Origin: an uncultured Erysipelotrichaceae bacterium
GTDB taxonomy: Bacteria > Bacillota_I > Bacilli_A > Erysipelotrichales > Erysipelotrichaceae
Length of the DNA: 59,397 bases
Reading direction: 5' to 3'
NCBI GenBank assembly: GCA_902795865.1
Contig: CADBMV010000064.1
Coordinates: forward strand, 1 to 59,397
Shown here: piece after piece, positions 25,232 to 57,564 of the stretch
Numbering within the stretch: position 1 is the first letter of the stretch
Layout of the letters: the number at the start of each line of letters is the position of its first letter
The notes under the pieces: generated by a model
Database searches by the model: none
What the model was told of the DNA's origin: nothing
What the model saw: the letters and a program-made list of their open reading frames with translations, nothing else
Translations under genes and position numbers: made by a program

Positions 25232-25283
25232 AATATTTACCTCATTTCTATTCAATATTAATCCTATTTTTACTTATTTTTAA

Positions 25284-34321: not shown

Positions 34322-34322
34322 T

Positions 34323-35315
34323 TTAATCCCAATCCTTACTACCTACATAAATCACTTTAGTTCCACTATTCTCTAAATCAAAAGGAAGTTCTACTAAATC
34401 AGACATAGCTTTTCTTAATTGTTCTTGCTTATCTTGTTCACAATAGAATAGTAAGAAGCCTCCTCCACCTGCACCAAGTAATTTACCACCTAAAGCACCA
34501 GAATTAATGGCTTTATCATAATATTTATTAATAGTACTATTAGAGATACTAGAAGCTAACTCTTGTTTTAATATCCAGTTTTCATTTAAGATTTCACCAA
34601 AATTATGTAAATTACCATCAGTTAATGCTTGTTTCATATCATAAGCTAAACCAGTCATCTTTTTTAAGTTTTCAAACTTTGCATCTTCACTAATGATATT
34701 CTTGTTTTGTTCTTGAAGTATTTCTGAAGCAGAATGAGTTAAGCCAGTATAAAACAATAATAAATTGTTAGCTAATTGTTTTTTTACTTTTTCACTTATA
34801 ATTAATGGCTCAACATCAACTGATCCATCTGACATAAATCTAATAAACTTTAAACCACCAATAGCTGTACCATACTGATCTTGTTTACCAATTGGTTCAT
34901 TTAGTTTATTTATTTCTAAATCACAAGCTTCAGAAGCAATTCTTTCTTGTGAACAATATTTACCTTTATATGCATATAAAGCATGTATTAAACCTACTGT
35001 ATAAGCACTAGAAGTAGATAGTCCTGTACCTGAAGGAATATCTGCAGTAGAAACAATCTCTATACCACTTAAATTGTGATCTAATAATAATTGTCTAGCG
35101 ATAGGATGTTGGATATCTTTTACGTCCTTAGCTATCTCTGTTTTACTATATTTCACAATAGTATCTTCTCTATTAAAAGTAGGATGTATAGACACATACA
35201 TGTATTTATTAATAGTAGTAGAAACTACACAACCTTCATGTTTTTCATAAAAAGATGGTAAATCACTACCACCACCTGCAAAACTAATTCTAAAAGGCGT
35301 TCTTGTTATAATCAT
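34323..35315 (-). CDS. hddA: GHMP-family sugar kinase, probable D-glycero-alpha-D-manno-heptose 7-phosphate kinase
   Basis: 330 aa with MIITRTPFRISFAGGGSD, PSGTGLSTSSAY and GAGGGGFL. Confidence 0.82.
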   Translation of the reverse strand: MIITRTPFRISFAGGGSDLPSFYEKHEGCVVSTTINKYMYVSIHPTFNREDTIVKYSKTEIAKDVKDIQHPIARQLLLDHNLSGIEIVSTADIPSGTGLSTSSAYTVGLIHALYAYKGKYCSQERIASEACDLEINKLNEPIGKQDQYGTAIGGLKFIRFMSDGSVDVEPLIISEKVKKQLANNLLLFYTGLTHSASEILQEQNKNIISEDAKFENLKKMTGLAYDMKQALTDGNLHNFGEILNENWILKQELASSISNSTINKYYDKAINSGALGGKLLGAGGGGFLLFYCEQDKQEQLRKAMSDLVELPFDLENSGTKVIYVGSKDWD

Positions 35316-35358: not shown

Positions 35359-36570
35359 TTAAGAATCTTGTAGAATCCAAATATCATAATAAGATATTAT
35401 GCTTAGTAAATAAATTGGGGAATAAATGAATAAATCAACCACAGATACATCTATAAAATATGCCAACACTGGTATAGAAAAAATCATACAAAATAGTAAC
35501 ATATATAAATAATAAATAGTTCTTTTATTCTCTTCCTTAATTAAATAAATAAATGGAATTAGCATATAGATTGCTGTATATCTATAACTATCTGGAACAC
35601 ATGCACTCATTAAACTAAACAACATTACTAAAGACGCAATGCTATTACTGCCTTTAAAAAATGAAATAATATTTATTAATGCATACAAACTTGTAGCAAC
35701 GGTAATAACGTTTATCAATACATTGCTACTAACATTAATTTTTAACGCATCACAAATGGCAAGTATCATAGGAGCGATAGATGTCCATCTAGGAATAACA
35801 CTATTCTTAATAGATAGTAATACATTTACATATTGTTTTATTCCATTAAAACCACCGGTAAATATAAACGGAATAAAGAAAAAAGCCATTCCATAGATAA
35901 TTAATCTTATAGCTTCTTTATATCTTTTTTCTTTAATATAAAATAAACCAACAATAGCTGGATAAACCTTAATAGCTGCACTAATCGCAATAAGAATCAT
36001 TGCAATTTCTTTAGCTATTTTATTCTCTGATTCTTTTAAATATAGTGCGAACAACAATAAACAATCAACAAGTATAATAACGTTTCCTCTATCAATTGCA
36101 CCAAATAAAAAAGGCAAGGATAATATCACTAAAGTTGAAAAAATATATATTATACTTGTCTCATATTTATCCTTAAGATGACACTCAATAGCCTTATATA
36201 ATAAAGCAATTTTTATAGACATCAGCGCAACATAAATAACGCTATTCATTCCATGTTGCTTAGCAATGATGAAAGAATTTAATTCAATTGGCGCTTGAAA
36301 GGGATCAATCAAATACAACAAATGATAAAATAAATAAGCAAACGGAGGAAAAGGAGCATCACCAGTGTTATAGTAAATATTATTTATATCCGATGCATAT
36401 ACTATTTGCCTATAATAGTCAGATTCTATCTGATTTCCAAAAGACATTAATCTAAGAATTTCGCCTTTACCAAGAATAGATGTTATTAAAAAAATAAGCA
36501 ACGAAAGTAAAGCTATGTATATGTACACATATGCAGGCTTAAAAAGCCTTATACTAAATATTCTTTTCAT
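35359..36570 (-). CDS. Polytopic membrane protein, possible GT87/DUF2029-like GT-C or polymerase
   Basis: 403 aa with about 11 TM helices. The loops IESDYYRQ and GDAPFPPFAYLFYHLL are reminiscent of the DUF2029 YPP region. This is a weak call. Confidence 0.45.
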   Translation of the reverse strand: MKRIFSIRLFKPAYVYIYIALLSLLIFLITSILGKGEILRLMSFGNQIESDYYRQIVYASDINNIYYNTGDAPFPPFAYLFYHLLYLIDPFQAPIELNSFIIAKQHGMNSVIYVALMSIKIALLYKAIECHLKDKYETSIIYIFSTLVILSLPFLFGAIDRGNVIILVDCLLLFALYLKESENKIAKEIAMILIAISAAIKVYPAIVGLFYIKEKRYKEAIRLIIYGMAFFFIPFIFTGGFNGIKQYVNVLLSIKNSVIPRWTSIAPMILAICDALKINVSSNVLINVITVATSLYALINIISFFKGSNSIASLVMLFSLMSACVPDSYRYTAIYMLIPFIYLIKEENKRTIYYLYMLLFCMIFSIPVLAYFIDVSVVDLFIYSPIYLLSIISYYDIWILQDS

Positions 36571-36620
36571 AACTTAACATGTATATTATATCTTCAAGTT
36601 TTTAATTTGTTTATTATTTT

Positions 36621-38186
36621 TTGATAGATTATAATTTTAATGTGAAATTATTGGATTTTTTTAGACTAAATTATAGTTATAAAGCTGCTAAATCAAGTTT
36701 AATTGCTGTCATGATTACAGGCTTTATTTCTTATTGTTTAATCATAGCTTATAGAGTTGCCGATCCAGATACAATTATTGAAGGTGTAACCCATTATATG
36801 AATGCCACATGGGCAATTGTGGGATGTGGAAGATGGTTTTTACCAATTATTAATATACTATCAGGTAATATTATAATGCCTGGATTTATAATAGCTTTCT
36901 ACTGTTTAATGATGTGGTTATCTGCATTTATGATATGCAAGCTATGGAAAATAGAAAACACACTATTAGTAGTGGTTATTTCTATGGTGATGTGTGTTAC
37001 TCCTGCAACAATTTCTCAACTTGTTGCAACATACATGGGTATGGCCTTTTCACTTGCTTGCTTATTATCAGTGCTATTTGTTTATTTCTGTTTTAAACAA
37101 AAAAGTGTAATTAACTGGTTTATCGCCATAACATGTATGATATTATCATTAGCTTTATATCAAAGCTATATCGGTTTAGCTGCGTGTTTAGTATTGATGA
37201 CTTTAGCTATAAACTTAATCATAAATAAAAATTACGATATATTGGCTGAAGCTTTAAAAGCAATAATTCTAGCAGCTATTAGTTCAATCTTATACTTTAT
37301 TAGTAATAAAGTTATTTTGCTTATTCTTGGTTTACAAAGCTCTTCTAGATTAGCTGAATTTTCTATTACAAAAATATTCACTAGTCTATTTACTAAACTA
37401 ATTGAAATGTATACAACATACTTTTTATATTTTGCTGATTTAACACTATTAAGAGCTATATTCTATTTGTTTATATTTGTATCTATTGTTATTAATACAA
37501 TATTCTTCTTATTAAACAAAAAGAAAAGTATCTCTAATAAAATATTCTTTGTTTTATGTATATTATTAGTACCTCTTGCATCTAATGTTGTAGGTATTAT
37601 TACGCCAGATAATCCTATCACTGTATTAATGACATATCAGAATATAATGATTGTACCTTTTGCACTTGCGTTAATGCATTGCATTACTAAAGAAGAAAGA
37701 ATAATAAATATTGAAAAGATTATCTTAGTAAGTATTTCTTTATTAATATGTTGGACACATGTAATTAGTGCAAACGCAACTTATCAAGCATATAAGTTAT
37801 CTCATGATTATGTATACAATCAATATAGTCAAGTAGTTTATGATGTACAACACTTTGAAGGATATCGCAAAGATAAAACACCAGTTTTAATTGCTGGTTT
37901 CTTTGATGATTCAACTTTAAGAAAGAATATTAAAACTTATAATTACGCAGTTGATTTATTTGAAGATTTAGTTTTCTGGAATACTTTAGGTGGAGCTACA
38001 TATAACAGACATAGATATGTTATGCAATATTTTGGATTAGACTTTATCGATTTTTCAATTGATGAATATAACAAGATTATTAATTCTCAAGAGTTTAAAG
38101 AAATGGGCTTATGGCCTAGTGAAAACAGTATGAGATTTATTAATGAATATCTTGTAGTAAAAATAAATAACAATATAGCAAAATAA
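36621..38186 (+). CDS. Polytopic membrane protein with C-terminal ectodomain (GtrII/GT-C-like)
   Basis: 521 aa from TTG 36621; the start is uncertain, with an alternative GTG at 36642. About 12 TM helices are followed by a ~130-aa C-terminal domain. Loops RVADPDTIIEG and GCGRWFLP. Confidence 0.45.
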   Translation: MIDYNFNVKLLDFFRLNYSYKAAKSSLIAVMITGFISYCLIIAYRVADPDTIIEGVTHYMNATWAIVGCGRWFLPIINILSGNIIMPGFIIAFYCLMMWLSAFMICKLWKIENTLLVVVISMVMCVTPATISQLVATYMGMAFSLACLLSVLFVYFCFKQKSVINWFIAITCMILSLALYQSYIGLAACLVLMTLAINLIINKNYDILAEALKAIILAAISSILYFISNKVILLILGLQSSSRLAEFSITKIFTSLFTKLIEMYTTYFLYFADLTLLRAIFYLFIFVSIVINTIFFLLNKKKSISNKIFFVLCILLVPLASNVVGIITPDNPITVLMTYQNIMIVPFALALMHCITKEERIINIEKIILVSISLLICWTHVISANATYQAYKLSHDYVYNQYSQVVYDVQHFEGYRKDKTPVLIAGFFDDSTLRKNIKTYNYAVDLFEDLVFWNTLGGATYNRHRYVMQYFGLDFIDFSIDEYNKIINSQEFKEMGLWPSENSMRFINEYLVVKINNNIAK

Positions 38187-38208
38187 CAGATCCATTTGGA
38201 TCTGTTAT
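38183..38208. terminator. Bidirectional intrinsic terminator between convergent genes
   Basis: Perfect 11-bp inverted repeat ATAACAGATCC-attt-GGATCTGTTAT. It overlaps both stop codons (38184-86 and 38205-07). It is flanked by an A-run on one side and a T-rich stretch on the other. Confidence 0.7.
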
Positions 38209-39542
38209 TCTTTAATATGTTGTATTACTATTTTTGTTTTTCCTCTTGTTGTTCTAGTTATTTCATTTACATAATCAAAACTTAAATCAACTTTGCCTTT
38301 TTCTTTAAAGAATGTTTTGATTTCATTTTCATCATCATCAGTATAGTCTTTTGTCTTAATCACACGTACTACAGCTTTGCCTTTTTCAAATTGTTCAAAT
38401 TGCCACTTATCAATCTTTCCTATGGCTTTCATATGGTGTTCACCTAAAAAAGCAGTAAAGTTAATTTTTGTATTATCTTCATTTACTAAATAATCATAAG
38501 ATCTTCCTAATACTTTATTAAGAATCATATATTTACCATCATAGCCACCAAATTCTGCCATATCACCAGTTCTATATCTTATAAATGGCATTATAAAGTT
38601 GTGTAAAGATGTAACTACGACCTCACCAGTCTCATTTTCCTTAACGTGATTACCATCTTCATCTAACACTTCAACATACCCATATAAAGGTTCTACTCTT
38701 AATTTATATGTATCATCATAACTATAAGCAAACACACATGTTTCTGTATGGCCATATTGGAAGAATAAATTATTTGTTTTAAATGCTTTTTTAATTCTAT
38801 CCCATTGATATTCATAACTTGTTTCTGATGTTAATTCTATTCCTTTAATCTTAAAATCTATATCAATATTGTTATCTAAGATGTATGTTGCTACATCATA
38901 TATGTAAGATGGGAAGCCTCTTATAAAATCAGGTTTTAAAGCTAATATATAATCAACATATACATTCATGTTTTCGTTTGTTAAATATAAGCTAGATAAA
39001 TGATATTGACCATGAGATGATTTATACTCAGGAATTTCTTTCCAATATATTCCCTTTTCAACATCTTGTTCATCTATTGCTGGACCCATCATAGACAAAA
39101 TCTTATCGCCGTCTTCATAACCATGTTTCTTCCAAACATTATATTGGAAAAAATCATCTAATCCATTAGCATTATAAAATTCTAGAGGTGAACCAGTAGA
39201 ACCACTAGTTCTTGCGATATTATAAATCATTTTATCTTTATCTTTAGATACAAAAGAATCAAAATTACTTTTAATCATATCTTTATCAATAAATGGATAT
39301 TGTTTAATATCTTCAATATTGTTTAATGTTTTAGAAACTTCTTGATAGTGTTTTACATGACTACAAGCATATCTAAGCATCTTCTTTAGCATCTTTTCTT
39401 GTATTTGTAGTTCATTGTCTTTTCCATAATTTCTATAGACATTAAGCATATCAAAAGCATGATTAAAACAATCTTTTAATTTTCCCTCTGAAACAAACTG
39501 TAATCCTCTTTTAATTACACTTACATAGTAATCTAATGCCAT
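38205..39542 (-). CDS. Adenylate-forming enzyme of the phenylacetate-CoA ligase / F390 synthetase family (often annotated CapK in capsule loci)
   Basis: 445 aa. The AMP-binding P-loop is TSGSTGSPLEFY and there is an IRYRTGDMAEF motif. Confidence 0.78.
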   Translation of the reverse strand: MALDYYVSVIKRGLQFVSEGKLKDCFNHAFDMLNVYRNYGKDNELQIQEKMLKKMLRYACSHVKHYQEVSKTLNNIEDIKQYPFIDKDMIKSNFDSFVSKDKDKMIYNIARTSGSTGSPLEFYNANGLDDFFQYNVWKKHGYEDGDKILSMMGPAIDEQDVEKGIYWKEIPEYKSSHGQYHLSSLYLTNENMNVYVDYILALKPDFIRGFPSYIYDVATYILDNNIDIDFKIKGIELTSETSYEYQWDRIKKAFKTNNLFFQYGHTETCVFAYSYDDTYKLRVEPLYGYVEVLDEDGNHVKENETGEVVVTSLHNFIMPFIRYRTGDMAEFGGYDGKYMILNKVLGRSYDYLVNEDNTKINFTAFLGEHHMKAIGKIDKWQFEQFEKGKAVVRVIKTKDYTDDDENEIKTFFKEKGKVDLSFDYVNEITRTTRGKTKIVIQHIKE

Positions 39543-39551
39543 TTAAACCTC

Positions 39552-40484
39552 CTAGATCGAAATCTTTCCAATCATGTTTAATTTAGTTAGTAATATAAAT
39601 GGATAAAATATCAACCTAGCGTTTCTAAATCCATTTTTCTTTACAACTTCTTTTATTTCTTTAATAGCTATCTCATTTTTAGATACTTTATCTTTATTCT
39701 TATTAGTCTTCATAATGAAATAGAATATAATACCTAAATACTTATTATATGCAAGATTCTCGTATTCAGTATTTTTATAATAATTTAATATTTCTAAACC
39801 AGCTTCAACTTTATCATAGTTATCATCAGAATAGGTATTTCTTGTGAGTGAATTATCTCTCATTCTAATCTTATAAGCATAGTAATTGATGTGTGCAACA
39901 TTATCGAATGTCTCTAATAGTTTATAAGTAATGAATGTATCTTCAAAATGTTTACCATCAGGAAATCTTAATGTTTCAAATGTTTTTTTTCTAAATAATT
40001 TACAAACAGGTGATTCTCTAAAGATTTCATCTTTAAAGTATTCATATAATACTTCTTGTCTAGTATATAATCTAGTAGATTTATCTCCTATTTCAGGATC
40101 ATCTAATTCGTTCATATCTAAACAAGAAACATCTGCATCATATTTATTCAAAAGATTATATAAAGTTTCAATATAATCATCTTTCACAACATCATCACTA
40201 TCAATAAAAGCTAATAGATTAGTTCTATCATCTTTATAAAATATATCTATTCCATAATTTCTTGCGCTAGCTGCACCACCATTTTCTTTATAGTAGTAAG
40301 AAACTCTATTATCTTTCTTAATGATTTCATTTATTACTTGTCTACTATTATCACTACTACCATCATCTACACATATTATTTGAATATTAGAGTATGTCTG
40401 ACACAATAAAGATTCAATACATTCTTTTACATATTGTTCAGTATTATAAACAGGAATCACAACACTAATTAATTCATTATTCAT
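39552..40484 (-). CDS. GT2 family glycosyltransferase
   Basis: 310 aa with ISVVIPVYNTEQYVKECIESLLCQTY, CVDDGSSDNS and IDSDDV. Confidence 0.88.
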   Translation of the reverse strand: MNNELISVVIPVYNTEQYVKECIESLLCQTYSNIQIICVDDGSSDNSRQVINEIIKKDNRVSYYYKENGGAASARNYGIDIFYKDDRTNLLAFIDSDDVVKDDYIETLYNLLNKYDADVSCLDMNELDDPEIGDKSTRLYTRQEVLYEYFKDEIFRESPVCKLFRKKTFETLRFPDGKHFEDTFITYKLLETFDNVAHINYYAYKIRMRDNSLTRNTYSDDNYDKVEAGLEILNYYKNTEYENLAYNKYLGIIFYFIMKTNKNKDKVSKNEIAIKEIKEVVKKNGFRNARLIFYPFILLTKLNMIGKISI

Positions 40485-41422
40485 TATGATTTATATAACC
40501 TCATAGCTTTATTTAAGATAGACCCTAACATTGTATCATTTTCTAAAGCAATTGCTTCATATATTCTAGAGTATATACATGATTTTAATGATTCATAGTC
40601 TTCATTGCGTTTATTAGTATTTTTTAAGTAATTATTTAAAATATTAAAGATTCTAATACAATCAAAAATGTTTTTCTTTTCTTTTCTTTCGATTTTTAAA
40701 GACTTCAATATTTCTGATTGATTATTTTCATTGCATACCAACTCTCTTACATTTAGATATTCTTGTAGTCTTTTAAATGGATTGGCAGCAGTTAAACTGT
40801 TACTGTCACCAACACGATAATAAGTTAATACTTCTGGTAAATTACAGCCTTTTGAATATTTCAATATTTCATTCCATAATTTATATTCAACCGCAACTCT
40901 AATATTTAAATCATAATTCAAATTATTATCTTTTAATACAGAATTTCTAATCATAACTGCAGGATGATAAAAAGGGCTTTGAATATTTAAATATTTTCTT
41001 ATTCCTTCATCTGTAGTACATAGTTTATTAATTTCATATAGATTGTTATTAGTATCAATATGTCTTGTCCAAGAACCTACTATTCCATATTCAGGATTAT
41101 TTTCTAAGAATCTAACTTGTTTTTCTAATCTGTTTTCTAGCATTAAATCATCAGCATCTATTCTTGCGATATATTTAGTATTTATTAAATTAACGCCTTT
41201 ATTCAAAGAACCTGTTGGACCTATATTTTCTTCATTAATAACTAATTTAATCCTAGGATCATCATAGCTTTTGATAACTTCTACAGTATTATCTGTAGAT
41301 GCATTATCAATTATTAATAATTCAAAATCTTTATAAGACTGTTTTAAAACACTATCAATACAAAGATTGATATTAGGGTTGTTGTAAACAGGTAGTAAAA
41401 CTGTAACTAATACCTTTTCCAC
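40484..41422 (-). CDS. GT2 family glycosyltransferase
   Basis: 312 aa with TVLLPVYNN, LLIIDNASTDNT and RIDADDL. Confidence 0.88.
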   Translation of the reverse strand: MEKVLVTVLLPVYNNPNINLCIDSVLKQSYKDFELLIIDNASTDNTVEVIKSYDDPRIKLVINEENIGPTGSLNKGVNLINTKYIARIDADDLMLENRLEKQVRFLENNPEYGIVGSWTRHIDTNNNLYEINKLCTTDEGIRKYLNIQSPFYHPAVMIRNSVLKDNNLNYDLNIRVAVEYKLWNEILKYSKGCNLPEVLTYYRVGDSNSLTAANPFKRLQEYLNVRELVCNENNQSEILKSLKIERKEKKNIFDCIRIFNILNNYLKNTNKRNEDYESLKSCIYSRIYEAIALENDTMLGSILNKAMRLYKS

Positions 41423-41426: not shown

Positions 41427-43193
41427 TTAATTATAATATAACTTTAAAAATATATATGTATCATAGACATCATCAAAGTCTATAGTCTTTACATTACAAT
41501 TTAAGATAGCCTCATCATTACCACCTTTTAACTCATTGCCTAAATAGATGATTCTATCTCTATCTAAATTCTCTTTTTTAATAATTAATTCAAAAGTTTT
41601 CTCCTTAGAAAAATCCTTCTTCATAATATCAATAGATGTATGTCCAGCTATTTCAGCCTTATATTCATCATTATATTTTTTAATAATATCTTGTATCACC
41701 AATAGTTTTTCTTCTCTATTAGTAAGAGGCTTAATTGTTAAGATAGCTCCTCCTCTTACACTAATCTTACCTTTATATTCTTCATGAGATTCTAATTCTT
41801 TAATTAACTCATCACTTATTAAAAACTCTTGAGATAATAATTTTCCACCATCATCATTATTCAAATTAAAATATGTATTGCCATAGTTACAATAAATATC
41901 TTCCCCAGTATACTTCTTATAATAATCTTTAACAATATCATAGACATGTCTATAGTTATTACCTGATAAAATAACTCCCTTAAACAGTTCCATATTCTTT
42001 ATGCAGATAGTTTTATCCTTCATATGTTCATCCCATAAAGTTCCATCTAAATCAGATACTAATTGATAATCAATATCTTTTAAATCATAATAATCCTTCA
42101 TAATTAAAGAAACTACTGACTCAGGATTGTGTTTAGAATTATTCTTATCTGATAATATTCCATGAATATATTTAAAATCAGCATCTATATGATTCATTGA
42201 TTCATCAGCATTATCATTAATCACAACAGTTACATCTTTTAAATCTAAATAATTATTAATTAGCTTCAATAATTCATCTGCCCCAACACCTTTACAATCT
42301 TGATCTTGTGCATTATTCATTACTAAATACTTTTTAGCTTTACTATTTTTAATTAATTCATTAAAACCGATATGCATATAACTAGGTATTAATGACGACC
42401 ATTGTGTTCCTGAACTAAAAATAATAATATCCGCATCATTTACTATCTCTATAATATCTTTATCGTTGTTTTCATTTATTGTAGGTAAGTATTCCTTACC
42501 ATTCTTATCTTTTAAGATAGCTTTAACTACTTTATCATTTGGATTATTCCAAATAACTAAATCACCTTCATCTGATATTACATGTCCAGATTGTGTTTCG
42601 TTATATAAGAATAGATTCACATCAGATATCAAATGTACTCTATCTTCAATATTTAATATTTCTGCCATTCTTGAGCCAGCCTTCTCAAGTGAATTATTAT
42701 TTAATGCTGCACAAGAGGCATAGAAAATATTAGATAAAGAGAAATCTTTAAAACTTACTTCTTCAATACCATTTCTTAAATTGCCACCTAGATAAAAGAA
42801 ATGATTTAAATATTTAATAAATAATTCTTTTGTCTTTAAATCTAAATAATCGATGTTTTTAATTATATTTAAAGCCTTTTTATAATAATCGTTATAGTCA
42901 TCAGCATCTAGTCTTAATTCGAATAGATTATATAATTTAGATTCTTTAGAATTATTATTTTTTAATTCATTTTTATATTTTAATTTAAACTGTGTTAACT
43001 GATTCTTTCTTAAGTCGCTTGGTCCTAAAATATCACTATTGAATATTTTTCTACATACACCTGTTGACTTACCATTATCATATGCATTTATGATTGCGTG
43101 AAGTTCATAGTTTCCATAATCAAAAAGAGAGTCAAATCCTCCCTGTAAAGCTTTACCACCTGATCCTCCACAAAATAGTACAATCTTTAACAT
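41427..43193 (-). CDS. CofD/YvcK-family (UPF0052, 2-phospho-L-lactate-transferase-like) domain fused to a HAD phosphatase domain
   Basis: 588 aa. The N-terminus has KIVLFCGGSGGKALQGG, HAIINAYDNGKSTGVCRK and GPSDLRKN. The C-terminal ~210 aa have SDLDGTLWD (HAD motif I) and GNELKGGNDE. GGGAGA SD upstream. Confidence 0.68.
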   Translation of the reverse strand: MLKIVLFCGGSGGKALQGGFDSLFDYGNYELHAIINAYDNGKSTGVCRKIFNSDILGPSDLRKNQLTQFKLKYKNELKNNNSKESKLYNLFELRLDADDYNDYYKKALNIIKNIDYLDLKTKELFIKYLNHFFYLGGNLRNGIEEVSFKDFSLSNIFYASCAALNNNSLEKAGSRMAEILNIEDRVHLISDVNLFLYNETQSGHVISDEGDLVIWNNPNDKVVKAILKDKNGKEYLPTINENNDKDIIEIVNDADIIIFSSGTQWSSLIPSYMHIGFNELIKNSKAKKYLVMNNAQDQDCKGVGADELLKLINNYLDLKDVTVVINDNADESMNHIDADFKYIHGILSDKNNSKHNPESVVSLIMKDYYDLKDIDYQLVSDLDGTLWDEHMKDKTICIKNMELFKGVILSGNNYRHVYDIVKDYYKKYTGEDIYCNYGNTYFNLNNDDGGKLLSQEFLISDELIKELESHEEYKGKISVRGGAILTIKPLTNREEKLLVIQDIIKKYNDEYKAEIAGHTSIDIMKKDFSKEKTFELIIKKENLDRDRIIYLGNELKGGNDEAILNCNVKTIDFDDVYDTYIFLKLYYN

Positions 43194-43209
43194 TTAGTCT
43201 CCCAAGTAT

Positions 43210-43941
43210 CTAACAATACTCTTCTACTATTTTATCAAGTTCTTCCTTAGTATTAAATGATAAAATCTTATTTGCATCTATTATTATAGCTTTTACTGGT
43301 TTATTTAACTCATAATGATAATTAAATATATCTAATAATCTTACTTCTTTAGTTTCATTAGGATCATAGTCTTCTGAGTTTAATCCTAAATAATCTTTAT
43401 AATCCATTAAGTATTCTTCTAGTGTATTTAAATCAAAACAGAATAAAGATTGATCATGTATACCCTTATCTATTTCTCCATCAGTCTTTTTAAAATGTGA
43501 CTTAATAATATAATTATTAGAATCTACATCAAACCATGCATATGGTTTTTCATCTATTGAACATGCTACGTTCCAATCATCATTTTCAATCTTTTCTTTA
43601 AATTCAATAAATGGTGTTTCATCTACAAAGAAAGCATCTCCCCAACACACAAATAATCTTTGCAAATTAGGGTTGTCTTTTTTAACTAATCTAGTTAGTT
43701 TTAATAAAGACATTGCATCACCTTGACCAGTAGTAATACTTAAAATCTTAGCATCTACATTCAAATCAAAACTATTTACAGTTTCAATATTCAATCCTAA
43801 ATAAATCTCATCAAATACTTTTCTTGCATACTTAATGGTGTTATCTACATTCATTTCATCTTTAAGCATACATAAAGCTTTTGGATAACCTCCAAATCTT
43901 GATGATTTACCAGCTGCAACTATTAATAATGCACTATTCAT
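43210..43941 (-). CDS. MobA-like nucleotidyltransferase (NTP_transf_3-type)
   Basis: 243 aa with LIVAAGKSSRFGGYPKALCML at the N-terminus. It overlaps the upstream gene by 8 nt. Confidence 0.68.
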   Translation of the reverse strand: MNSALLIVAAGKSSRFGGYPKALCMLKDEMNVDNTIKYARKVFDEIYLGLNIETVNSFDLNVDAKILSITTGQGDAMSLLKLTRLVKKDNPNLQRLFVCWGDAFFVDETPFIEFKEKIENDDWNVACSIDEKPYAWFDVDSNNYIIKSHFKKTDGEIDKGIHDQSLFCFDLNTLEEYLMDYKDYLGLNSEDYDPNETKEVRLLDIFNYHYELNKPVKAIIIDANKILSFNTKEELDKIVEEYC

Positions 43942-45010
43942 TTTTTAATCTTTCTATAATGTCTTTTAATTCTTCTATATTTTCAGGTACAAATATTTTA
44001 CTAGAATCAGAATATTTTTCTTTTAATTGATCTATCATTTCATTGAACCATGGTATTTCATTACCATCTAATCTATTAAGTAATAATTTATAAATAAATA
44101 TTACGTAAGGTTCTTTGTTTCCTAACATCTTGGCAGAAAATTGCACTGTAGAAAAAAATGACAACAGTATATGTTTATCAGTTATATTCTCTATACATTC
44201 TATTTCCCACATATTATTGATATTATCCATATCAATATCTTCATATACCAAATCTTTTTGTCTAGGATGTAATCTAACTAAAGGATTAAATGATTTAATA
44301 TCTAATTGTTTAATAATATCAATAAACTTTACACCATTGTAGTTTTCTCTTGATTCTAGAGGCTGCTCAAGAATGATTAGTTTATGATCTTTTAATAAAG
44401 AATCACTATTATAACTAAATACTTTTTTAATAATATCTATTGCTTTATTATCTTTATTCAATACTGGTAATTGTTCAATATTCTTAGAGATTGTAGACTT
44501 ACAAAATTCTTTGTTATTCACATATAATTTTTGTATATCAAATGCATATACATCACTTTTTAACAATTTATTAATAAAAGGATATTTATATGTTCTTTCA
44601 TCAATTATGCAATTTCCACTATAAGTAATAATTCCATCATCATAGATGTATACCTTTGGTTTATTTTTATAATTTAAAGCTACACCTAATAATCCTCTAT
44701 CACCTACAAACAATTGATCATAATCTTCATGTAAGAAACTATTATCAGAAAAATTATATCCACATAATATCTTTGAATAACTTAAAGTATCAAATAATCT
44801 ATCTAATTTAACATTTTCATTTCTATAACATCTATATACTTTATTAAATAATTTTGTTTCTTCTAACTTATTACATAATTCTTCAGCATTCTTAAACCAC
44901 ATCTCCACAAAAACATCAGTATTAGCTGCTGTGTTTTCTACATTATTAACTACCATGTTAATGGTATTTAATATCTTTAAAGGTGAATTTGATACAAATG
45001 CAGTTTTCAT
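43934..45010 (-). CDS. GT52-like (bacterial sialyltransferase-motif) glycosyltransferase, candidate ulosonic-acid (Kdo) transferase
   Basis: 358 aa. The N-terminus has FVSNSPLKILNTINMV. D/E-D/E-G motif in KVYIYDDGIITY, HP motif in VRLHPRQKD, and a late LSFFSTVQFS block. Confidence 0.6.
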   Translation of the reverse strand: MKTAFVSNSPLKILNTINMVVNNVENTAANTDVFVEMWFKNAEELCNKLEETKLFNKVYRCYRNENVKLDRLFDTLSYSKILCGYNFSDNSFLHEDYDQLFVGDRGLLGVALNYKNKPKVYIYDDGIITYSGNCIIDERTYKYPFINKLLKSDVYAFDIQKLYVNNKEFCKSTISKNIEQLPVLNKDNKAIDIIKKVFSYNSDSLLKDHKLIILEQPLESRENYNGVKFIDIIKQLDIKSFNPLVRLHPRQKDLVYEDIDMDNINNMWEIECIENITDKHILLSFFSTVQFSAKMLGNKEPYVIFIYKLLLNRLDGNEIPWFNEMIDQLKEKYSDSSKIFVPENIEELKDIIERLKNE

Positions 45011-46417
45011 CTATCCTCCATTAAATAATCTAATAAGTTCATTTCTATTCTTATAAAGCATATAAAGCATCATTAAACCATTAATTATAAATAATGCTAA
45101 TCTGATTAATACATTATTCACAAATACCGTAGATATTATATCAATAATTAATAAAGCAATAATAGTTCCTATTAAAACTTTAATGTCATAAAACTCATTT
45201 TTATCTAGTTTTCTAGCAAAATATGAATGAATGACTAATAAGACAAGCCTACTTATTAATAAGGCATATGGAGCTCCAAATAAGCCATATTTATTAATTA
45301 ATAAATACAATAATACAACTTCAATACTAGAGCTGATTATTGATGCCAACATAACATTCTTAGTGTTTTTATAGAAGTATTGAGTATTTAAAGGAGTATA
45401 GTATAAAAAACTAATATAAACATCAATTGATAGTGGTATTAAACAATATATTGCATCCCAATAATTCTTATTAATAAATAAATGAAAGAAATCTGGAACT
45501 ATTAATATGAATTCTGCTATTAAACTAGCAAATATTACATAACAAATACTATTAAATCTTTTAATCAAAACATAGTCCTTTTTATTCGTTGCATCAAAAA
45601 ACCAAGGATTCCATGCGTTTTCAAAAGTAGCTAATAATACTTGTGGAATATTTAATAAAGTAATAGCCATACCATATATACCTACATTAGAAAAATCAGT
45701 TAAATATTGAATTGATAGTGTTGCAAGTTGAGCAAACAAAGATATCAAAAAGGTATGTACTATTAATGGTGAACCCCATTTTAAAGCTTTAGAGATATAA
45801 GAGGTATTATATTTTTTTACACCTACTACTAAATACATATAAATAAAACTAATAATATTAGCTAATAATATTCCATATATCTTAGCTTTATGAACTTCAT
45901 GATCTTTAAATATAGTAAATATCAATAATAAAGATACACCTAAATTAATTACTGTATTAATTACTAAATAAACAAAATAGGCTTTATATCTGCCATCTAA
46001 TGTTAATCTTCCACCTAGTAAAATACACCCTGCAGAAAAAGCTACATCTATGATTAATATATTCCAAAGAAGTCTATTAAACGACAAGAAATTAGGATTA
46101 ATAAATAATACTATATTTACACCAATTAGTAACAATAAAGCCACAGAAAAACATATCAATAACACTGTAGCTGTATAAGAATCATAATCTGTTTCTTCAT
46201 CATATTTAGATATTCTGATTGTTGCAGATAAGCCTAATAAGACAATTGATTCAATAATAGTCGCATATGTAACAAAAGAAGTAAATATACCATTTTCATA
46301 TGTTGAAAGTAAATCAGAAAATAATGGTAATACAAAAATCGCAACACCCTTTACAAGAATGTTACCAATCGCATACCAAGACATAGCTTTTATAATACTG
46401 AATTTTTTCTTTTCCAT
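45011..46417 (-). CDS. wzx: Wzx-type (MOP superfamily) polysaccharide flippase
   Basis: About 468 aa with 12-14 TM helices. The track starts at TTG 46426; I prefer the ATG at 46417 (MEKKKF), which overlaps the upstream stop as TAATG. Confidence 0.78.
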   Translation of the reverse strand: MEKKKFSIIKAMSWYAIGNILVKGVAIFVLPLFSDLLSTYENGIFTSFVTYATIIESIVLLGLSATIRISKYDEETDYDSYTATVLLICFSVALLLLIGVNIVLFINPNFLSFNRLLWNILIIDVAFSAGCILLGGRLTLDGRYKAYFVYLVINTVINLGVSLLLIFTIFKDHEVHKAKIYGILLANIISFIYMYLVVGVKKYNTSYISKALKWGSPLIVHTFLISLFAQLATLSIQYLTDFSNVGIYGMAITLLNIPQVLLATFENAWNPWFFDATNKKDYVLIKRFNSICYVIFASLIAEFILIVPDFFHLFINKNYWDAIYCLIPLSIDVYISFLYYTPLNTQYFYKNTKNVMLASIISSSIEVVLLYLLINKYGLFGAPYALLISRLVLLVIHSYFARKLDKNEFYDIKVLIGTIIALLIIDIISTVFVNNVLIRLALFIINGLMMLYMLYKNRNELIRLFNGG

Positions 46418-47436
46418 TAGCTGCAAATTAAATTAAGATATTTGTTGTTTATTTTAAATAAAACATAACCTATTATAGTACAAATCACTACTACAACAAA
46501 ACTCATCATAAGCATACTTATTTCCATATTAAATACTCTCATTAATAAACTCGCAAGAATCGTTCTAAACAAAGGATGAGAATAATACATAAATGTTGAA
46601 GTATACTTACATATTTTTCCTAAATGACTATATTCATTTAAAGGGTGTTTAAGAAGAAATATCAAAAATACAAATGTGAATAAATACATTGATATTGCAG
46701 ATATATTTGATGGCACAACAATAACCTTGCTCATAAAATATGTCTCTATAAATATCAATATCAATAAAACAATTAAACTAATAATCAGTTTATTATCATT
46801 AATCTTCATTAATCTATCGTTGTTGTTAGCTATGTACATACCCATCATAAATAATGGAAAACCATGTAAGAAGATACGACAATATGTAGTGAAATATTTA
46901 TAATTAAAGAAATTCACTAATATTGGAATATTCTTACCAACAAAATAATAATATGTCCCAAGTAATCCTATTACATACAAAACAATAGCTATTTTATAAA
47001 ATACTTTTTCCAAGTTATATTTATGTATTAAATATCCAAATAATACATACAAAACAAGTGAAGCCATAAACCATAAATGAAAACCTGTTCCATTAATAAA
47101 TAAACTAACTAATTGAAGTTTAATGAAATCATAAATAGCCATCTTGCCACTTAATATTTCATTATAGATATTTATTAGAGTATATATTATTATCCAGAAA
47201 CAAATAGGAATTATTAATCTTTTAATATTCTTCTTAACAGAATCAAAACCATCTTTATTTAAACTAATAGTAAAGTAATATGCAAAAGCTACATGAAAGA
47301 AATATAATGCATATCTAAATAGATCAAATAGAAAAGACTTGTCAATATTGATAAGTCTTACATGTGAATCAACGATCATTATTGCGCAAAAATATTTAAA
47401 AATATCTATTGACGCATTATACTGTTTCTTTACCAT
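46417..47436 (-). CDS. Acyltransferase family 3 membrane protein
   Basis: 339 aa. NASIDIFKYFCAIMIVDSHV at the N-terminus and about 10 TM helices. Confidence 0.7.
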   Translation of the reverse strand: MVKKQYNASIDIFKYFCAIMIVDSHVRLINIDKSFLFDLFRYALYFFHVAFAYYFTISLNKDGFDSVKKNIKRLIIPICFWIIIYTLINIYNEILSGKMAIYDFIKLQLVSLFINGTGFHLWFMASLVLYVLFGYLIHKYNLEKVFYKIAIVLYVIGLLGTYYYFVGKNIPILVNFFNYKYFTTYCRIFLHGFPLFMMGMYIANNNDRLMKINDNKLIISLIVLLILIFIETYFMSKVIVVPSNISAISMYLFTFVFLIFLLKHPLNEYSHLGKICKYTSTFMYYSHPLFRTILASLLMRVFNMEISMLMMSFVVVVICTIIGYVLFKINNKYLNLICS

Positions 47437-48349
47437 TTGCTATCCAGTCAATAACTTGCCTTACTGCACCACATCCACCATCTAAAGTAGATATAAAATT
47501 TGATTCTTTCTTTACTTTATCAGATGCATTTCTTACACAAGCACTAATACCACCATTTGAATTAACTAATCTGATACAATCTAAATCATTATCATCGTCA
47601 CCAATATAGACAACTTGATTTAGATTAATTTCTAATCTACTACATATTTCTTCTAATTTAGTTTTCTTATCTTTAACACCTTGATATAGATGTCTAATTT
47701 TTAGTTCTTTACATCTTCTTTTTAAATATTCTGATTTTCTTGCGGTTAATACAACAGGTATTATTCCTAAGCTTGGAAGAATATTACCTAAACCATAACC
47801 ATCTTTTATATTGAATGATTTAAATAATTCACTATCTTCACCCATATAAATAGTTCCATCAGTTAAAGTACCATCTGTATCCATTACAACTGCTTTAATA
47901 TCTTTAGTATTAATATATGGGACTTTAAAGACTATCTTTTTTACTTTTTGATGAACACCATCTTGTACATCAACACAAGGCATATGTGCTTGATCAGGAT
48001 AAAAAATCATGAAGCTTTTTTCTTTTAATTCGTATTTTTTACCTTGTTTATTATCATAGTAAAAACAGATATCTTTTTCTTCATCATATGGTTCACATAT
48101 TTCTAGATTGCTTATTTCATCCACAATCATTTTTTCTGAACCAGAAATCATTAATTGAATATCAATATATTTTCTATGTGACTCATATTTTCTTTCAGAT
48201 CTTGATTTAGTGAGATATTCTTCTACATTGGCATATATTCCATTTTTAAAATATCTTTTCCCTACAGGAAGAGCTTTTAAATCTGTAGTCTTTAAAAAAT
48301 CAAATACAACACTACTTAATTCTTTGATATCGTTTTTTCTTTCACTCAT
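47417..48349 (-). CDS. kdsC: Fusion: YhcH/YjgK/YiaL (NanQ-family cupin) domain + Kdo-8-phosphate phosphatase (KdsC, HAD)
   Basis: 310 aa. The N-terminal ~146 aa have GKRYFKNGIYANVEEYLTK, ESHRKYIDIQLMISGSEKM, FMIFYPDQAHMP and VKKIVFKV, the YhcH family pattern. The C-terminus has VVMDTDGTLTDGTIYMG, FNIKDGYG, IGDDDNDL and GGCGAVRQVIDWI, matching KdsC. Confidence 0.85.
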   Translation of the reverse strand: MSERKNDIKELSSVVFDFLKTTDLKALPVGKRYFKNGIYANVEEYLTKSRSERKYESHRKYIDIQLMISGSEKMIVDEISNLEICEPYDEEKDICFYYDNKQGKKYELKEKSFMIFYPDQAHMPCVDVQDGVHQKVKKIVFKVPYINTKDIKAVVMDTDGTLTDGTIYMGEDSELFKSFNIKDGYGLGNILPSLGIIPVVLTARKSEYLKRRCKELKIRHLYQGVKDKKTKLEEICSRLEINLNQVVYIGDDDNDLDCIRLVNSNGGISACVRNASDKVKKESNFISTLDGGCGAVRQVIDWIANGKETV

Positions 48350-49311
48350 ACTATTACTCCAGCTTTAACTATTTGTCTCCAGTCAACAACACCAATTAAC
48401 TTATCATTTTCATCTACTACTGGTAAGTTATTGATGTTTTTACTTCTGATAAATTTTAAAGCTTCAATAGCTAATTTATCTGAACTAATTCTTTTAGGAT
48501 TATTAGTCATAACATTCTTAACTTTTTCTGAATAAATATCTACTCTTTTTTCAATTACTCTTCTAAGATCTCCATCAGTTAAAATACCTTCAAGTTTATT
48601 ATTATCGTCCACCATACAGACAACACCTAATCCTTTATTAGTCATTTCTTTAATTGCGTCAACTAATAAAGAATTTGTATTTACACTTGGTAACTCTTTT
48701 CCATAAGCCATACAATCTTTAACTTTTAGAATTAATTTTTTACCTAAAGCTCCTGCAGGATGAAGCTTACCAAAATCTACATCTTTAAAATCATACATTT
48801 CTGAAGCTACTACTGCTAAGGCATCTCCATATACTAACTCTACTGTTGTAGAAGATGTAGGAGCCAAACCTAAATGACATGCTTCTTCAAATTCAGGTAA
48901 TACTTGAACTATATCAACATTTTTAGCTAAAGTAGATTCACTCTTGCCTGTAATCGCAATTATTTTGCAGCCAATCATTTTTATTGCAGGTAATATTTCT
49001 AGTATTTCACTAGACTCACCAGAATAAGAAATAATAATTACGACATCATTTTTAGAAACCATTCCTAAATCTCCATGCATAGCCTCTGCAGGATGAAGAT
49101 AGAATGATGGTGTTCCTAAACTTGAAAATGTTGCGGCAATCTTTTGAGCAATATGACCAGGTTTACCCATACCTGTCACAATAACTTTGCCTTCGCAATT
49201 AGATATTTCATCTAAAATATTCAAAAATGTTTCATTTAAAATATCTCTTGTCTTTTTAAGAGCTTCAATCTCAATATCAAATACTTTCTTAGCTTCATTT
49301 AATCTATCCAT
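48346..49311 (-). CDS. kdsD: Arabinose-5-phosphate isomerase (SIS + tandem CBS)
   Basis: 321 aa with VTGMGKPGHIAQKIAATFSSLGTPSFYLHPAEAMHGDLGM and two C-terminal CBS repeats. ATGA overlap with the kdsC fusion. Confidence 0.92.
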   Translation of the reverse strand: MDRLNEAKKVFDIEIEALKKTRDILNETFLNILDEISNCEGKVIVTGMGKPGHIAQKIAATFSSLGTPSFYLHPAEAMHGDLGMVSKNDVVIIISYSGESSEILEILPAIKMIGCKIIAITGKSESTLAKNVDIVQVLPEFEEACHLGLAPTSSTTVELVYGDALAVVASEMYDFKDVDFGKLHPAGALGKKLILKVKDCMAYGKELPSVNTNSLLVDAIKEMTNKGLGVVCMVDDNNKLEGILTDGDLRRVIEKRVDIYSEKVKNVMTNNPKRISSDKLAIEALKFIRSKNINNLPVVDENDKLIGVVDWRQIVKAGVIV

Positions 49312-49319
49312 ATTAACTC

Positions 49320-50096
49320 CTAATGAACTGCATCATATACTTTTATTACTCTTTCAAGTAATGCCTCAAATTCATCTAATTTAACCATATTAGGACCATC
49401 AGATAAAGCATTATCTGGGTCTGGATGTACCTCAAAAAATAATGCATCAGCTCCTGCAGCAACTGCAGCTTTAGCTAAAGGTTCCACATATTCTCTATTA
49501 CCACCAGTTACAGTTCCCTTACCACCTGGTTTTTGTACAGAATGGGTTGCATCAAACACTACAGGATAGCCTAGTTTCTTCATTTCATAAATGCCTGTCA
49601 TATCCACAACTAAAGTATTATAGCCAAAGCTATTTCCTCTTTCACAAAGCATTATATTTTTATTACCAGTTTCTTCTAACTTAGTAACTACATTCTTCAT
49701 ATCCCAAGGAGCTAAAAATTGTCCCTTTTTCACATTAATTAACTTACCAGTTTTACCAGCTGCTTCTAATAAATCTGTTTGTCTACATAAAAACGCAGGT
49801 ATTTGAAGCATATCACAGACTTCAGCTGCCTTTGATGCATGCCAAGGCTCATGTATATCAGTTACAATCTTTACACCAACTTCATCTTTAACTTTCTTTA
49901 GTATTTTTAAACCTTCTTCAATACCAGGCCCTCTAAAAGAAGTAATAGAAGTTCTATTAGCTTTATCAAAAGATGATTTAAAATATAAATCTAAATCTAA
50001 CTTATCAGCTATTTCTTTTAATCTTTTAGCTTCTTTTAATACTAACTGTTCAGATTCTATTACACATGGTCCTGCAATAAGTATAAACTTAGCCAT
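49320..50096 (-). CDS. kdsA: 3-deoxy-D-manno-octulosonate 8-phosphate synthase, metal-dependent type
   Basis: 258 aa with [10 protein letters not shown] (Cys at the metal-ligand position), [18 protein letters not shown] and [22 protein letters not shown] upstream. Confidence 0.95.
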
Positions 50097-50832
50097 AAAT
50101 GACCTCCATTAATTCTTCCACTTCTTTAACTTGTTCAGGAGTATCAACTCCTACAGTATGATATTTAGTTTCTTTAACTTTAATTTTATATCCATTTTCT
50201 ATAGCACGTAATTGTTCTAAGGATTCAGATAACTCAAGTTCAGATTTATCCATCTTAGAATATTTCATCAAAAACCACTTCTTATAACCATAAGCACCTA
50301 TATGCTTATAATGATTGGTTTTTCTATTTTCGTCTCTTTCATAAGGAATAGTAAATCTAGAAAAATATATAGCATCATGATTAATATCATCTATTACTTT
50401 TACTACATTAGGATTATCTAATTCTTCCTTCTTATCAATTAATACTTTTAAAGTTCCAAAATAAACATCTTTATCTTCAAAAACTGAAACTAGATCTTCA
50501 ATCATTTCTTTTCTAAAAGTAGGCTCATCCCCTTGAATATTCAAAATGATATCTTCATCATCTAATTTCAATATTTCAGCACATTCCGCAAGTCTATCTG
50601 TTCCACAGGTATGCTTATCAGAAGTCATCAATGCTTTACCATTAAATGATTCAACACAATCATATATTCTAGAATCATCTGTAGCTACATAAACTTCATC
50701 AACTTTATCGCACTTCAAAGCATTTTCATAAACCCATTCAATCATAGGTTTTCCTGAAATAATAGCTAAAGGCTTACCAGGAAACCTAGTAGAACCATAT
50801 CTAGCAGGTATAATTACAATAGTTTTCATCAT
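50089..50832 (-). CDS. kdsB: CMP-Kdo synthetase (3-deoxy-manno-octulosonate cytidylyltransferase)
   Basis: 247 aa with [17 protein letters not shown] and NIQGDEP. Confidence 0.93.
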
Positions 50833-57563: not shown

Positions 57564-57564
57564 A

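Follow-up and report, generated by a model that had tools for sequence, protein, structure and literature searches.

A PF01933-HAD fusion protein and its partner nucleotidyltransferase in a surface-glycan locus of an Erysipelotrichaceae bacterium, and their probable role in the supply or attachment of an unusual sugar

Up to now the PF01933 superfamily has been known from two proteins: CofD/FbiA, an enzyme that is well understood, and YvcK/GlmR, which is the subject of much debate. FbiA binds its catalytic metal through Asp45, Asp57 and the beta-phosphate of GDP (PMC7253369). GlmR binds UDP-Glc and UDP-GlcNAc (PMC5482804), and the protein of Listeria monocytogenes has been reported to form UDP-GlcNAc from GlcNAc-1-P and UTP, a reaction for which D40, D41 and N198 are required; the residues that bind UDP-GlcNAc are Y265 and R301 in Bacillus subtilis numbering (PMC10128056). 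Here a third large clade of the superfamily is delineated. Its representative is a protein of 588 amino acids (aa) encoded on contig CADBMV010000064.1 of an uncultured Erysipelotrichaceae bacterium, a stretch of 59,397 nucleotides which is referred to as the window. The protein consists of an N-terminal PF01933 domain (N-domain) fused to a C-terminal HAD domain, and the gene directly upstream encodes a nucleotidyltransferase (NTase) of 243 aa. Together the two genes form a module that is unrelated to F420 and whose probable task is to supply or attach an unusual sugar.

A literature search found no characterised CofD/YvcK-family enzyme in polysaccharide synthesis beyond a passing remark in a 2024 survey of mycoplasma capsules, in agreement with what an initial annotation of this DNA had stated. 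The polymer of Mycoplasma fermentans PG18 is an unbranched, unsubstituted beta-(1->6)-glucofuranan (PMC11658790). Its synthase, a family GT2 glycosyltransferase (BAH69904), clusters with Glf-dependent galactofuranan synthases and is encoded in a region flanked by insertion sequences (IS) and 'potentially originating from Clostridia', together with a CofD-family gene and an NDP-nucleotidyltransferase (PMC11658790). The genome possesses pgm and GalU, is devoid of glf and has no known route to a glucofuranose donor (PMC11658790).

Domains of the fusion protein and its partner

Both open reading frames (ORFs; Table 1) are as described in the initial annotation, and the blocks quoted there (KIVLFCGGSGGKALQGG, HAIINAYDNGKSTGVCRK, GPSDLRKN, SDLDGTLWD, GNELKGGNDE and LIVAAGKSSRFGGYPKAL) are all present. 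Its domain calls were borne out by Pfam, with PF01933 and HAD in the fusion and PF12804 in the partner. The match of the 588-aa protein to PF01933 (CofD) extends over residues 4-334 (E 4.8e-19, 69.1 bits at a cut-off of 30). The AF2 model of the fusion has a pLDDT of 91.6 and a pTM of 0.90, and the protein is predicted to be soluble.

The top Foldseek matches of the N-domain are YvcK/GlmR (UPF0052) structures (2O2Z, 2HZB, 2PPV, 2Q7X) with E values from 1e-15 to 1e-9 and a TMt of about 0.72, while CofD (3C3D) and FbiA (6UW7) rank lower (E about 1e-6, TMt 0.62-0.64). If the best representatives are compared, an E value of 6e-15 (TMt 0.72) for the YvcK type stands against 9e-7 for CofD/FbiA. A profile search of the PDB with the fusion gave a similar picture, as the N-domain matches only YvcK-type chains (E about 1e-12). 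Among the NCBIfam models the one for YvcK (TIGR01826) reaches 63 bits at a cut-off of 196 and aligns to residues 147-334 only, TIGR04357 (GAK system CofD-like) likewise stays below its cut-off, and the matches include no CofD equivalog. Because of these results the domain is placed in the PF01933 superfamily, yet it is neither a CofD nor a YvcK; it is nearer to YvcK/GlmR than to CofD/FbiA. The earlier designation as a CofD-like transferase is therefore valid for the superfamily but not for nearness to CofD, since YvcK/GlmR ranks first in both the Foldseek and the PDB profile search.

In an alignment of 15 homologues (43-100% identity) the residues G9, G10, G12, D39, D60 and N293/N294 of the N-domain are invariant, and so are the basic residues R48, R62, K63, R94 and R140. 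The conserved blocks comprise the Gly-rich loop G9-G10-x-G12, NAYDNGKSTG with D39, GPSDLRKN with D60 and SSGTQWSS at 260-267. In the alignment the Gly-rich loop, D39 and D60 match the ADDGGSSG and PGDVRN blocks of YvcK, and D39, N40 and N293/N294 align to D40, D41 and N198 of GlmR. A direct alignment of the N-domain to CofD/FbiA was not obtained (E 0.09-0.45 even from the closer domain of locus L021). D39 and D60 would be the equivalents of Asp45 and Asp57 of FbiA and are proposed as metal ligands. Between D60 and the following YvcK-alignable block the clade has an insert of its own, which is helical and about 90 residues long (about 65-150). Furthermore, the C-terminal 50 or so residues of the YvcK models fail to align to the N-domain, and the region of GlmR Y265/R301 falls within the part that does not align.

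A housekeeping YvcK/GlmR identity was rejected, because the protein scores far under the model cut-off, lacks yvcJ/whiA synteny and always lies in glycan loci. An F420-type function was rejected as well on account of missing F420 genes, a partner that is not CofC-like and a domain closer to YvcK. Neither F420 genes (cofC/fbiD, cofE, cofG/H) in the 59-kb window or in about 30 related loci nor yvcJ/whiA synteny in these loci was detected; as had been anticipated, the module occurs in glycan loci without F420 genes. The gut Firmicutes represented by metagenome-assembled genomes (MAGs) are not known to possess F420, and neither is M. fermentans.

The C-terminal domain is a member of the HAD superfamily, subfamily IIB. 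The Pfam model Hydrolase_3 scores 20.5 bits on the full-length fusion (cut-off 20.9) and 29 bits on the isolated domain, and it matches 12 of 12 homologues. HAD-IIB structures match the domain over about 250 columns in Foldseek, and TIGR01484 gives 27.5 bits at a cut-off of 41.8. The HAD motifs are invariant in 15 homologues (I, D381-x-D383-GTLW; II, S410-G-N; III, K530; IV, G552-N-E..G558-N-[DE]) and are retained even in very divergent triple fusions; K476, R480 and R493 are conserved basic residues of the cap.

Among the relatives of this domain phosphomutases rank first. The best PDB sequence match of the domain profile is the alpha-phosphoglucomutase (alpha-PGM) 4BND of Lactococcus lactis (E 3.8e-10). 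Foldseek also places 4BND on top, followed by six phosphomannomutases (PMMs) from Candida, Plasmodium, mouse, Trypanosoma, human and Leishmania, all of them above the generic HAD-IIB phosphatases. Motif IV (GNELKGGNDE) carries an insert of the PMM/alpha-PGM type, in contrast to GD-SGND in Cof-type phosphatases. From the sequence and the modelled fold, the term phosphomutase-like appears to suit the domain better than phosphatase. The HAD assignment of the initial annotation is thus upheld by the motifs and by Hydrolase_3, whereas neither a plain phosphatase nor the trimming of a phosphate agrees with the best matches, which point to substrate supply instead.

The partner protein matches PF12804 (E 4.9e-9, 37 bits at a cut-off of 27), and its AF2 model has a pLDDT of 94.4. 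Its top Foldseek matches are the uridyltransferase domain of GlmU, HddC, LicC and RmlA (E about 1e-13, TMq 0.69-0.76), and it superposes over its whole length on ADP-glucose pyrophosphorylase as well. The residues G11, K12, R15, K21, Q73-G-D75, W100-G-D102, H162-D-Q-S165, E199 and N230 are invariant. Structures of CofC, FbiD and MobA are absent from the top 50 Foldseek matches, and CofC/FbiD appear neither among the PDB profile matches nor among the NCBIfam matches. On the basis of the model the partner is a full-size NTase of the sugar-1-phosphate type. The term MobA-like hence fits the Pfam family but not the fold, and the supposed CofC-like nature is not supported; the parallel to CofC/CofD is accordingly an analogy of logic and not a homology of the partners.

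Distribution of the module and the Mycoplasma fermentans island

More than 725 database relatives of the fusion exist (90%-identity clusters). Among the 120 matches listed, all are full-length proteins of about 590-620 aa from gut or rumen Firmicutes metagenomes, named only 'YvcK family', 'CofD family' or 'gluconeogenesis factor'; conservation of the fusion to this extent lies well outside what chance would give. With the N-domain alone, 1.84 billion representative proteins yielded 873 clusters (50% identity) with E<=1e-3, 159 of them with E<=1e-30. The best 150 clusters comprise 117 HAD fusions (520-700 aa), 13 stand-alone proteins and about ten chains longer than 700 aa, with at least six CofD-HAD-NTase single chains and one GT2-synthase::CofD::HAD chain of 1007 aa (P0350) among the latter. 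The CofD-HAD-NTase chains of about 800 aa (P0360, P0364, P0309, P0326, P0361, P0335) have DYDYTLY as HAD motif I. At the sequence level such single-chain fusions are Rosetta-stone evidence that all parts would belong to one pathway.

A homologue of the NTase is the immediate neighbour in 18 of 18 genome loci with a full-length fusion, so that these loci and the single chains confirm the two proteins as the coupled unit that had been proposed. The NTase likewise adjoins the fusion in five further metagenome contexts and in all others examined; the five are loci of capsule or exopolysaccharide type with Wzx, Wzz/CpsB-D, Bac_transf, LicD, LytR and many glycosyltransferases. In 16 of 22 loci the pair has a GT2 or GT8 gene as a direct neighbour. 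The other neighbours vary, and the comparison of the 22 loci revealed no kinase conserved beside the pair.

In MAGs of Pyrinomonadaceae, Pseudobdellovibrionaceae and Magnetococcales a PF01933 relative is fused to a GT2 similar to AglJ/PpgS/Dpm1, nearly always with an adjoining S-adenosylmethionine-dependent methyltransferase. Three of these CofD::GT2 loci (L037, Pseudobdellovibrionaceae; L034, Magnetococcales; L036, an unclassified proteobacterial MAG) contain a cassette of the methyltransferase, a HAD protein of the beta-phosphoglucomutase (beta-PGM) family and a GlmU-like NTase. The Pyrinomonadaceae loci have a weak HAD-IIB protein directly upstream of CofD::GT2. As this survey of fusions and neighbours shows, the set of PF01933 protein, mutase-type HAD, sugar-1-phosphate NTase and GT-A transferase recurs across phyla with different HAD lineages. 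The clade is large and, in gut Firmicutes, Acidobacteria, Bdellovibrionota and Proteobacteria, integrated into the biosynthesis of glycans.

One Firmicute lineage has the pair directly after a phosphonate cassette (L042/L043, 3941..8979) composed of a cytidylyltransferase::PEP-mutase fusion, an iron-type alcohol dehydrogenase (Fe-ADH) and phosphonopyruvate decarboxylase; the stretch examined contains no LicD. Some members of the family may accordingly act on phosphonate or phospho-alcohol donors.

The CofD-family ORF of M. fermentans is intact and identical in LR215003.1 and CP002458.1 when read with genetic code 4 (L047/L048, 9319..10341); it encodes 340 aa and includes four in-frame TGA codons for Trp. 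The protein shows 33% identity to the N-domain of the window over its whole length (E 6e-52) and stops exactly at the boundary of the HAD domain, which is missing. The NTase of the island is 26% identical to that of the window over the full length (E 6e-17).

Six metagenomic synthases share at least 50% identity with the M. fermentans enzyme, and all six have CofD(-HAD) and NTase immediately downstream, in contrast to none of about 70 more distant synthases. Many of the synthases with at most 46% identity (L055-L129) follow a gene similar to MGDG synthase/GT28 (about 385-400 aa; L095 4818..5981 is one case), an arrangement that suggests a glucan system primed by a glycolipid. A search with a Glf probe, validated by 62% identity to the annotated glf of L. 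lactis, found no homologue near any of the 81 synthase loci. A test for mutual exclusivity of Glf and CofD plus NTase was consequently uninformative (0/81 synthase loci with Glf). The scanned proteins of the window showed no GLF domain. A homologue of the M. fermentans synthase is missing from the first 46 loci; loci of the window type use small soluble GT2 or GT8 enzymes.

Proposed function and its alternatives

The two genes are tentatively interpreted as a self-contained, portable module of three activities which makes an unusual activated hexose for the adjacent glycosyltransferase. The HAD-IIB domain, to judge by its sequence and fold, would be a mutase of the PMM/alpha-PGM type and would convert hexose-6-phosphate to hexose-1-phosphate, with D381 as the proposed nucleophile, D383 as acid/base and contributions of S410, K530 and motif IV. 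From hexose-1-phosphate and NTP the NTase would then form an NDP-hexose, as its fold and motifs suggest. In a third step, postulated from gene association, the N-domain would remodel the sugar phosphate or the NDP-sugar into the donor form for the glycosyltransferase; by analogy with M. fermentans this may be a hexofuranose donor such as NDP-glucofuranose. Finally, the GT2 encoded 4 bp downstream would add the sugar to a lipid-linked repeat unit, and Wzx would flip this unit.

For the PF01933 protein and the NTase the simplest interpretation is the making of a special donor, since the M. fermentans island adds nothing but a synthase and these two proteins. A processive synthase needs no more than a nucleotide-sugar donor. 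If the HAD domain is an add-on that supplies hexose-1-phosphate, its absence from M. fermentans, which has pgm, is accounted for. The mutase assignment also gains from the Proteobacteria, where a second, unrelated HAD subfamily that contains mutases fills the HAD slot. The narrower proposal, that the PF01933 domain and the NTase (with the mutase where present) are the missing maker of bacterial hexofuranose donors such as NDP-glucofuranose, is rather unlikely. If it were true, the module would represent a third, previously unknown PF01933 chemistry and a furanose route unrelated to the flavoenzyme Glf, and the copy in the window would put a rare furanose or another remodelled hexose into the surface glycan of a gut Firmicute.

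Several points weigh against an activated-hexose module. We know of no precedent in PF01933 for a ring contraction or sugar remodelling, and to our knowledge the sole established transferase reaction of the family is the phospho-transfer of CofD/FbiA with release of GMP. With only 33% identity to the M. fermentans protein the substrate or the reaction could differ, the link between this protein and the polymer is correlative, and a phosphodiester-linked primer at the reducing end would escape nuclear magnetic resonance (NMR). Moreover, the CofD gene was reported as split into two pseudogene fragments in PG18, which makes the polymer (PMC11658790); the difference from the intact ORF could be due to strain variation, phase variation or an artefact of assembly or annotation. 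As to the HAD domain, PF03332 (PMM) gives no match, and the choice between mutase and phosphatase rests on a ranking of similarities. An hhalign comparison with human PMM2 covered the C-terminal 60 residues only (motifs III-IV, probability 15%), and the cap region did not align to PMM. In addition, a classical PGM/PMM is already encoded in the window (20226..21908).

A phospho-transfer of the CofD type, the main alternative, is possible, if doubtful. In this case NDP-X and a hydroxyl group of the glycan (or of a lipid or primer) would yield glycan-O-P-X and NMP, that is a phosphodiester substituent or bridge. X would most likely be a hexose, attached as a hexose-1-phosphate side group for which the HAD mutase supplies hexose-1-phosphate, and not lactate, glycerate or enolpyruvate; nothing points to the lactyl-, glyceryl- or enolpyruvyl-phosphate substituent envisaged in the initial annotation. 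Phospho-transfer is the only proven transferase chemistry in PF01933 and would agree with the invariant D39, D60, Gly-rich loop, R48, R62, K63, R94 and R140, with an obligatory NTase partner yielding an NDP-activated donor and with a soluble protein working at the cytoplasmic face. The distant synthase loci hold a glycolipid glycosyltransferase similar to MGDG synthase in the slot beside the synthase, so that CofD and NTase could make a phospho-linked primer in its place. However, the repeat of M. fermentans is free of phosphate and substituents, and under a phospho-transfer its furanose donor would be unexplained. The M. fermentans island is the only relative tied to a glycan of defined chemistry, and the missing phosphodiester corresponds in spirit to the evidence named beforehand as speaking against the original proposal, though in a relative and not in this organism. 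The domain is also far more closely related to YvcK/GlmR than to CofD, the NTase does not resemble CofC, and two loci (L040, L046) already have a separate pair of LicD and cytidylyltransferase for phospho-substituents. If a phospho-transfer were true, the protein would belong to a new class of glycan phospho-transferases.

It is improbable that the N-domain adds no new chemical step and is a GlmR-like regulator or accessory protein, which would control flux by binding the final NDP-sugar, or a second NTase of low activity, in a module that would be no more than a dedicated PGM/PMM and pyrophosphorylase for an ordinary NDP-hexose. YvcK/GlmR are the closest structural relatives, and the nucleotide-sugar binding and UDP-GlcNAc formation described above for GlmR, together with the alignment of its D40, D41 and N198 to D39, N40 and N293/N294, would fit such a role. 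On the other side stand the low TIGR01826 score, the missing yvcJ/whiA synteny in about 30 loci and the failure of the Y265/R301 region to align. Furthermore, neither the retention of a pure regulator in a mobile island of three genes in a minimal genome nor its fusion to a GT2 synthase would be likely, and GalU is already present in M. fermentans.

Trimming by HAD phosphatases has precedents in the HAD-IIB enzymes MPGP, T6PP and SPP, which act after their synthases, and in the HAD phosphatase domain of PRPP-dependent ribofuranosyltransferases. A transfer followed by trimming, with the HAD domain as a true phosphatase that removes a phosphate from the unit after its transfer or from a phosphorylated acceptor and with a bisphosphate or another phospho-metabolite as NTase substrate, has little likelihood: Pfam and NCBIfam assign only generic HAD-IIB or Cof-type hydrolases, four of 12 homologues match S6PP weakly, the T6PP structure 6qj6 is among the Foldseek matches and the two catalytic Asp residues would also suit a phosphatase, but the top sequence and fold matches are mutases, the slot in Proteobacteria is filled by a HAD of the beta-PGM family, the domain is dispensable in M. 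fermentans with its own pgm, and no conserved kinase beside the pair would make a bisphosphate.

Surroundings of the pair and comparison with known systems

The window has a G+C content of about 27% and carries nearly all genes on the minus strand. The operon around the pair is a Wzx/Wzy-type glycan locus with flippase and glycosyltransferases in one tightly packed unit, the gaps between genes ranging from -20 to +16 bp. From the stop codon of the upstream NTase gene to the start codon of the fusion there are 16 bp, GGGAG is found 5' of the fusion ATG, and 4 bp separate the fusion stop from the start of the first GT2. The start of the second GT2 overlaps the stop of the first by 1 bp, and a 358-aa ORF reaches with its 3' end 8 bp into the NTase gene at its start. 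Two GT2s, Wzx, an acyltransferase and a pathway for 3-deoxy-D-manno-octulosonate (Kdo) surround the pair according to Pfam and NCBIfam, the glycan setting with two GT2s and Wzx being that of the initial annotation. In the flippase 100 hydrophobic windows of 19 residues were counted. Family scans of the window proteins identified no Wzy polymerase or priming transferase in the glycan operon.

Table 1 Features of the module, of its surroundings and of related fusions (positions in the window unless a locus is named)
Feature	Position	Strand	Basis
CofD/YvcK-HAD fusion, 588 aa	41427..43193	minus	ORF translation, Pfam
PF01933 N-domain of the fusion, residues 1-365	42099..43193	minus	Pfam, AF2, Foldseek
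HAD-IIB C-domain of the fusion, residues 366-588 and stop codon	41427..42098	minus	Hydrolase_3, Foldseek
NTase, sugar-1-phosphate type, 243 aa	43210..43941	minus	PF12804, Foldseek
First GT2 glycosyltransferase, candidate user of the module product	40484..41422	minus	PF00535, E 5.5e-33
Second GT2 glycosyltransferase	39552..40484	minus	PF00535, E 1.5e-34
358-aa ORF, no family match	43934..45010	minus	Pfam, NCBIfam, PDB scans
Wzx-type flippase (Polysacc_synt)	45011..46426	minus	PF01943, E 3e-13
LTA-synthase-like sulfatase-domain protein	1047..2534		
GDPD protein	2882..4756		
RmlA and RmlC, second glycan system	4743..6196		
DUF6077 protein, second glycan system	7016..8113		
Wzm/Wzt-like genes, second glycan system	11225..13402		
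DUF2142 membrane protein, second glycan system	16008..17993		
Loci of CofD-like::GT2 fusions, 677-745 aa	L021 9965..12199; L037 7557..12722; L034 7409..12016		

The 358-aa neighbour, at first taken for a GT52-like transferase, has no sequence match in Pfam, NCBIfam or the PDB, and a homologue is found only in the closest relative locus, L044 (cluster c31, window and L044). It is one of five sizeable ORFs of the glycan locus without a Pfam match, the others lying at 50886..52475, 52477..54306, 55625..57160 and 29105..30562; some of them may be novel glycosyltransferases or the Wzy polymerase.

A complete Kdo pathway (KdsB, KdsA, KdsD and a YhcH::KdsC fusion) is located at 47417..50832 in a setting that looks like a surface-glycan locus of a low-GC, Erysipelotrichaceae-like Firmicute. 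The same Kdo arrangement occurs in L044, whose fusion is the homologue with 69% identity that is named from an Erysipelotrichaceae bacterium. Directly after the two GT2 genes an adenylate-forming enzyme similar to PaaK/DVU1553 is encoded (38205..39542), adjoined at 35359..38186 by a GtrII-like (plus strand) and a GT87-like membrane glycosyltransferase. These genes suggest that the same polymer is decorated with acyl or amide groups and glycosylated outside the cytoplasm. A set of GDP-heptose type at 31496..35315 comprises a GmhA-like SIS protein, an HddC::GmhB fusion, an epimerase and a GHMP kinase. In L040/L018 (5393..9210), and partly in L001, such a set directly precedes the NTase/CofD-HAD pair on its upstream side; a functional tie of the pair to the heptose genes was dropped, as they co-occur in only two or three of 22 loci. 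An AAA_14/DUF4143 ATPase gene (54348..55529) breaks up the glycan genes, and at the end of the window an FdtA-like isomerase and a DegT aminotransferase (57144..58665) point to a dTDP-3-amino-3,6-dideoxyhexose pathway.

A second glycan system, of the ABC-transporter type, occupies 1047..25255. It includes GT4 genes besides those in Table 1 and is similar to loci for rhamnan-type cell-wall polysaccharides that are modified with glycerol phosphate. A GDP-fucose set with Gmd, fucose synthase, ManC and the classical PGM/PMM lies at 20226..25255.

An assigned function would annotate hundreds of genes now called 'gluconeogenesis factor', 'YvcK family' or 'CofD family' and would inform the dispute over catalysis by YvcK/GlmR. 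The question of the bacterial glucofuranose donor would become directly testable, with the three-gene cassette of M. fermentans and Clostridia as a minimal system.

With YvcK/GlmR the N-domain shares the Gly-rich N-terminus, the D-x-G-x-S-x-G, (P)xDxRN and GT/GS..SS blocks, the equivalents of GlmR D40 and N198 and a known or expected handling of NDP-sugars. It differs by an identity of only 13-18% and by the extra helical insert, and the module is HAD-fused, NTase-paired and situated in glycan loci instead of a yvcJ-glmR-whiA operon. CofD/FbiA has in common with the module the PF01933 domain, an NTase partner making an NDP-activated substrate and, presumably, two Asp residues in equivalent blocks. 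Unlike CofD/FbiA, however, the module has a weaker fold match, a non-CofC partner and no nearby F420 genes, and a function in Fo binding is implausible.

The HAD domain resembles 4BND, PMM1 and PMM2 in motif I (DxDGT), in the insert of motif IV (G-x-x-x-x-(x)-G-G-N-D) and in a T-S-I-D block similar to the I-S-F-D block of PMM. In contrast to these enzymes only its C-terminal half aligns, the first acidic residue of motif IV is replaced by Asn (GNE), and it is fused to PF01933. The NTase has the signatures of GlmU, HddC, LicC and RmlA (AAGKxxRF, PKAL, QGD, WGD and a late Asn), but with 13-17% identity it forms a family of its own that is always coupled to a CofD-like protein.

If a furanose is made, Glf is a functional analogue that provides a disfavoured hexofuranose donor for an adjacent or fused GT2; the module has no homology to it and no sign of a flavin cofactor was found. 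If a phospho-transfer takes place, the analogues are LicC/LicD, the TarI/TagF type and Stealth, in which an NTase makes NDP-X and a transferase installs X-phosphate with release of NMP. Their transferase families are unrelated to the fusion, and in L040 and L046 the LicD pair is separate. The M. fermentans island has no HAD domain, its genes are ordered synthase, CofD, NTase in a way that differs from the window, and its GT2 is a membrane-embedded processive synthase and not part of a Wzx/Wzy system. It nevertheless contains true homologues of both proteins of the window, paired as there beside a GT2.

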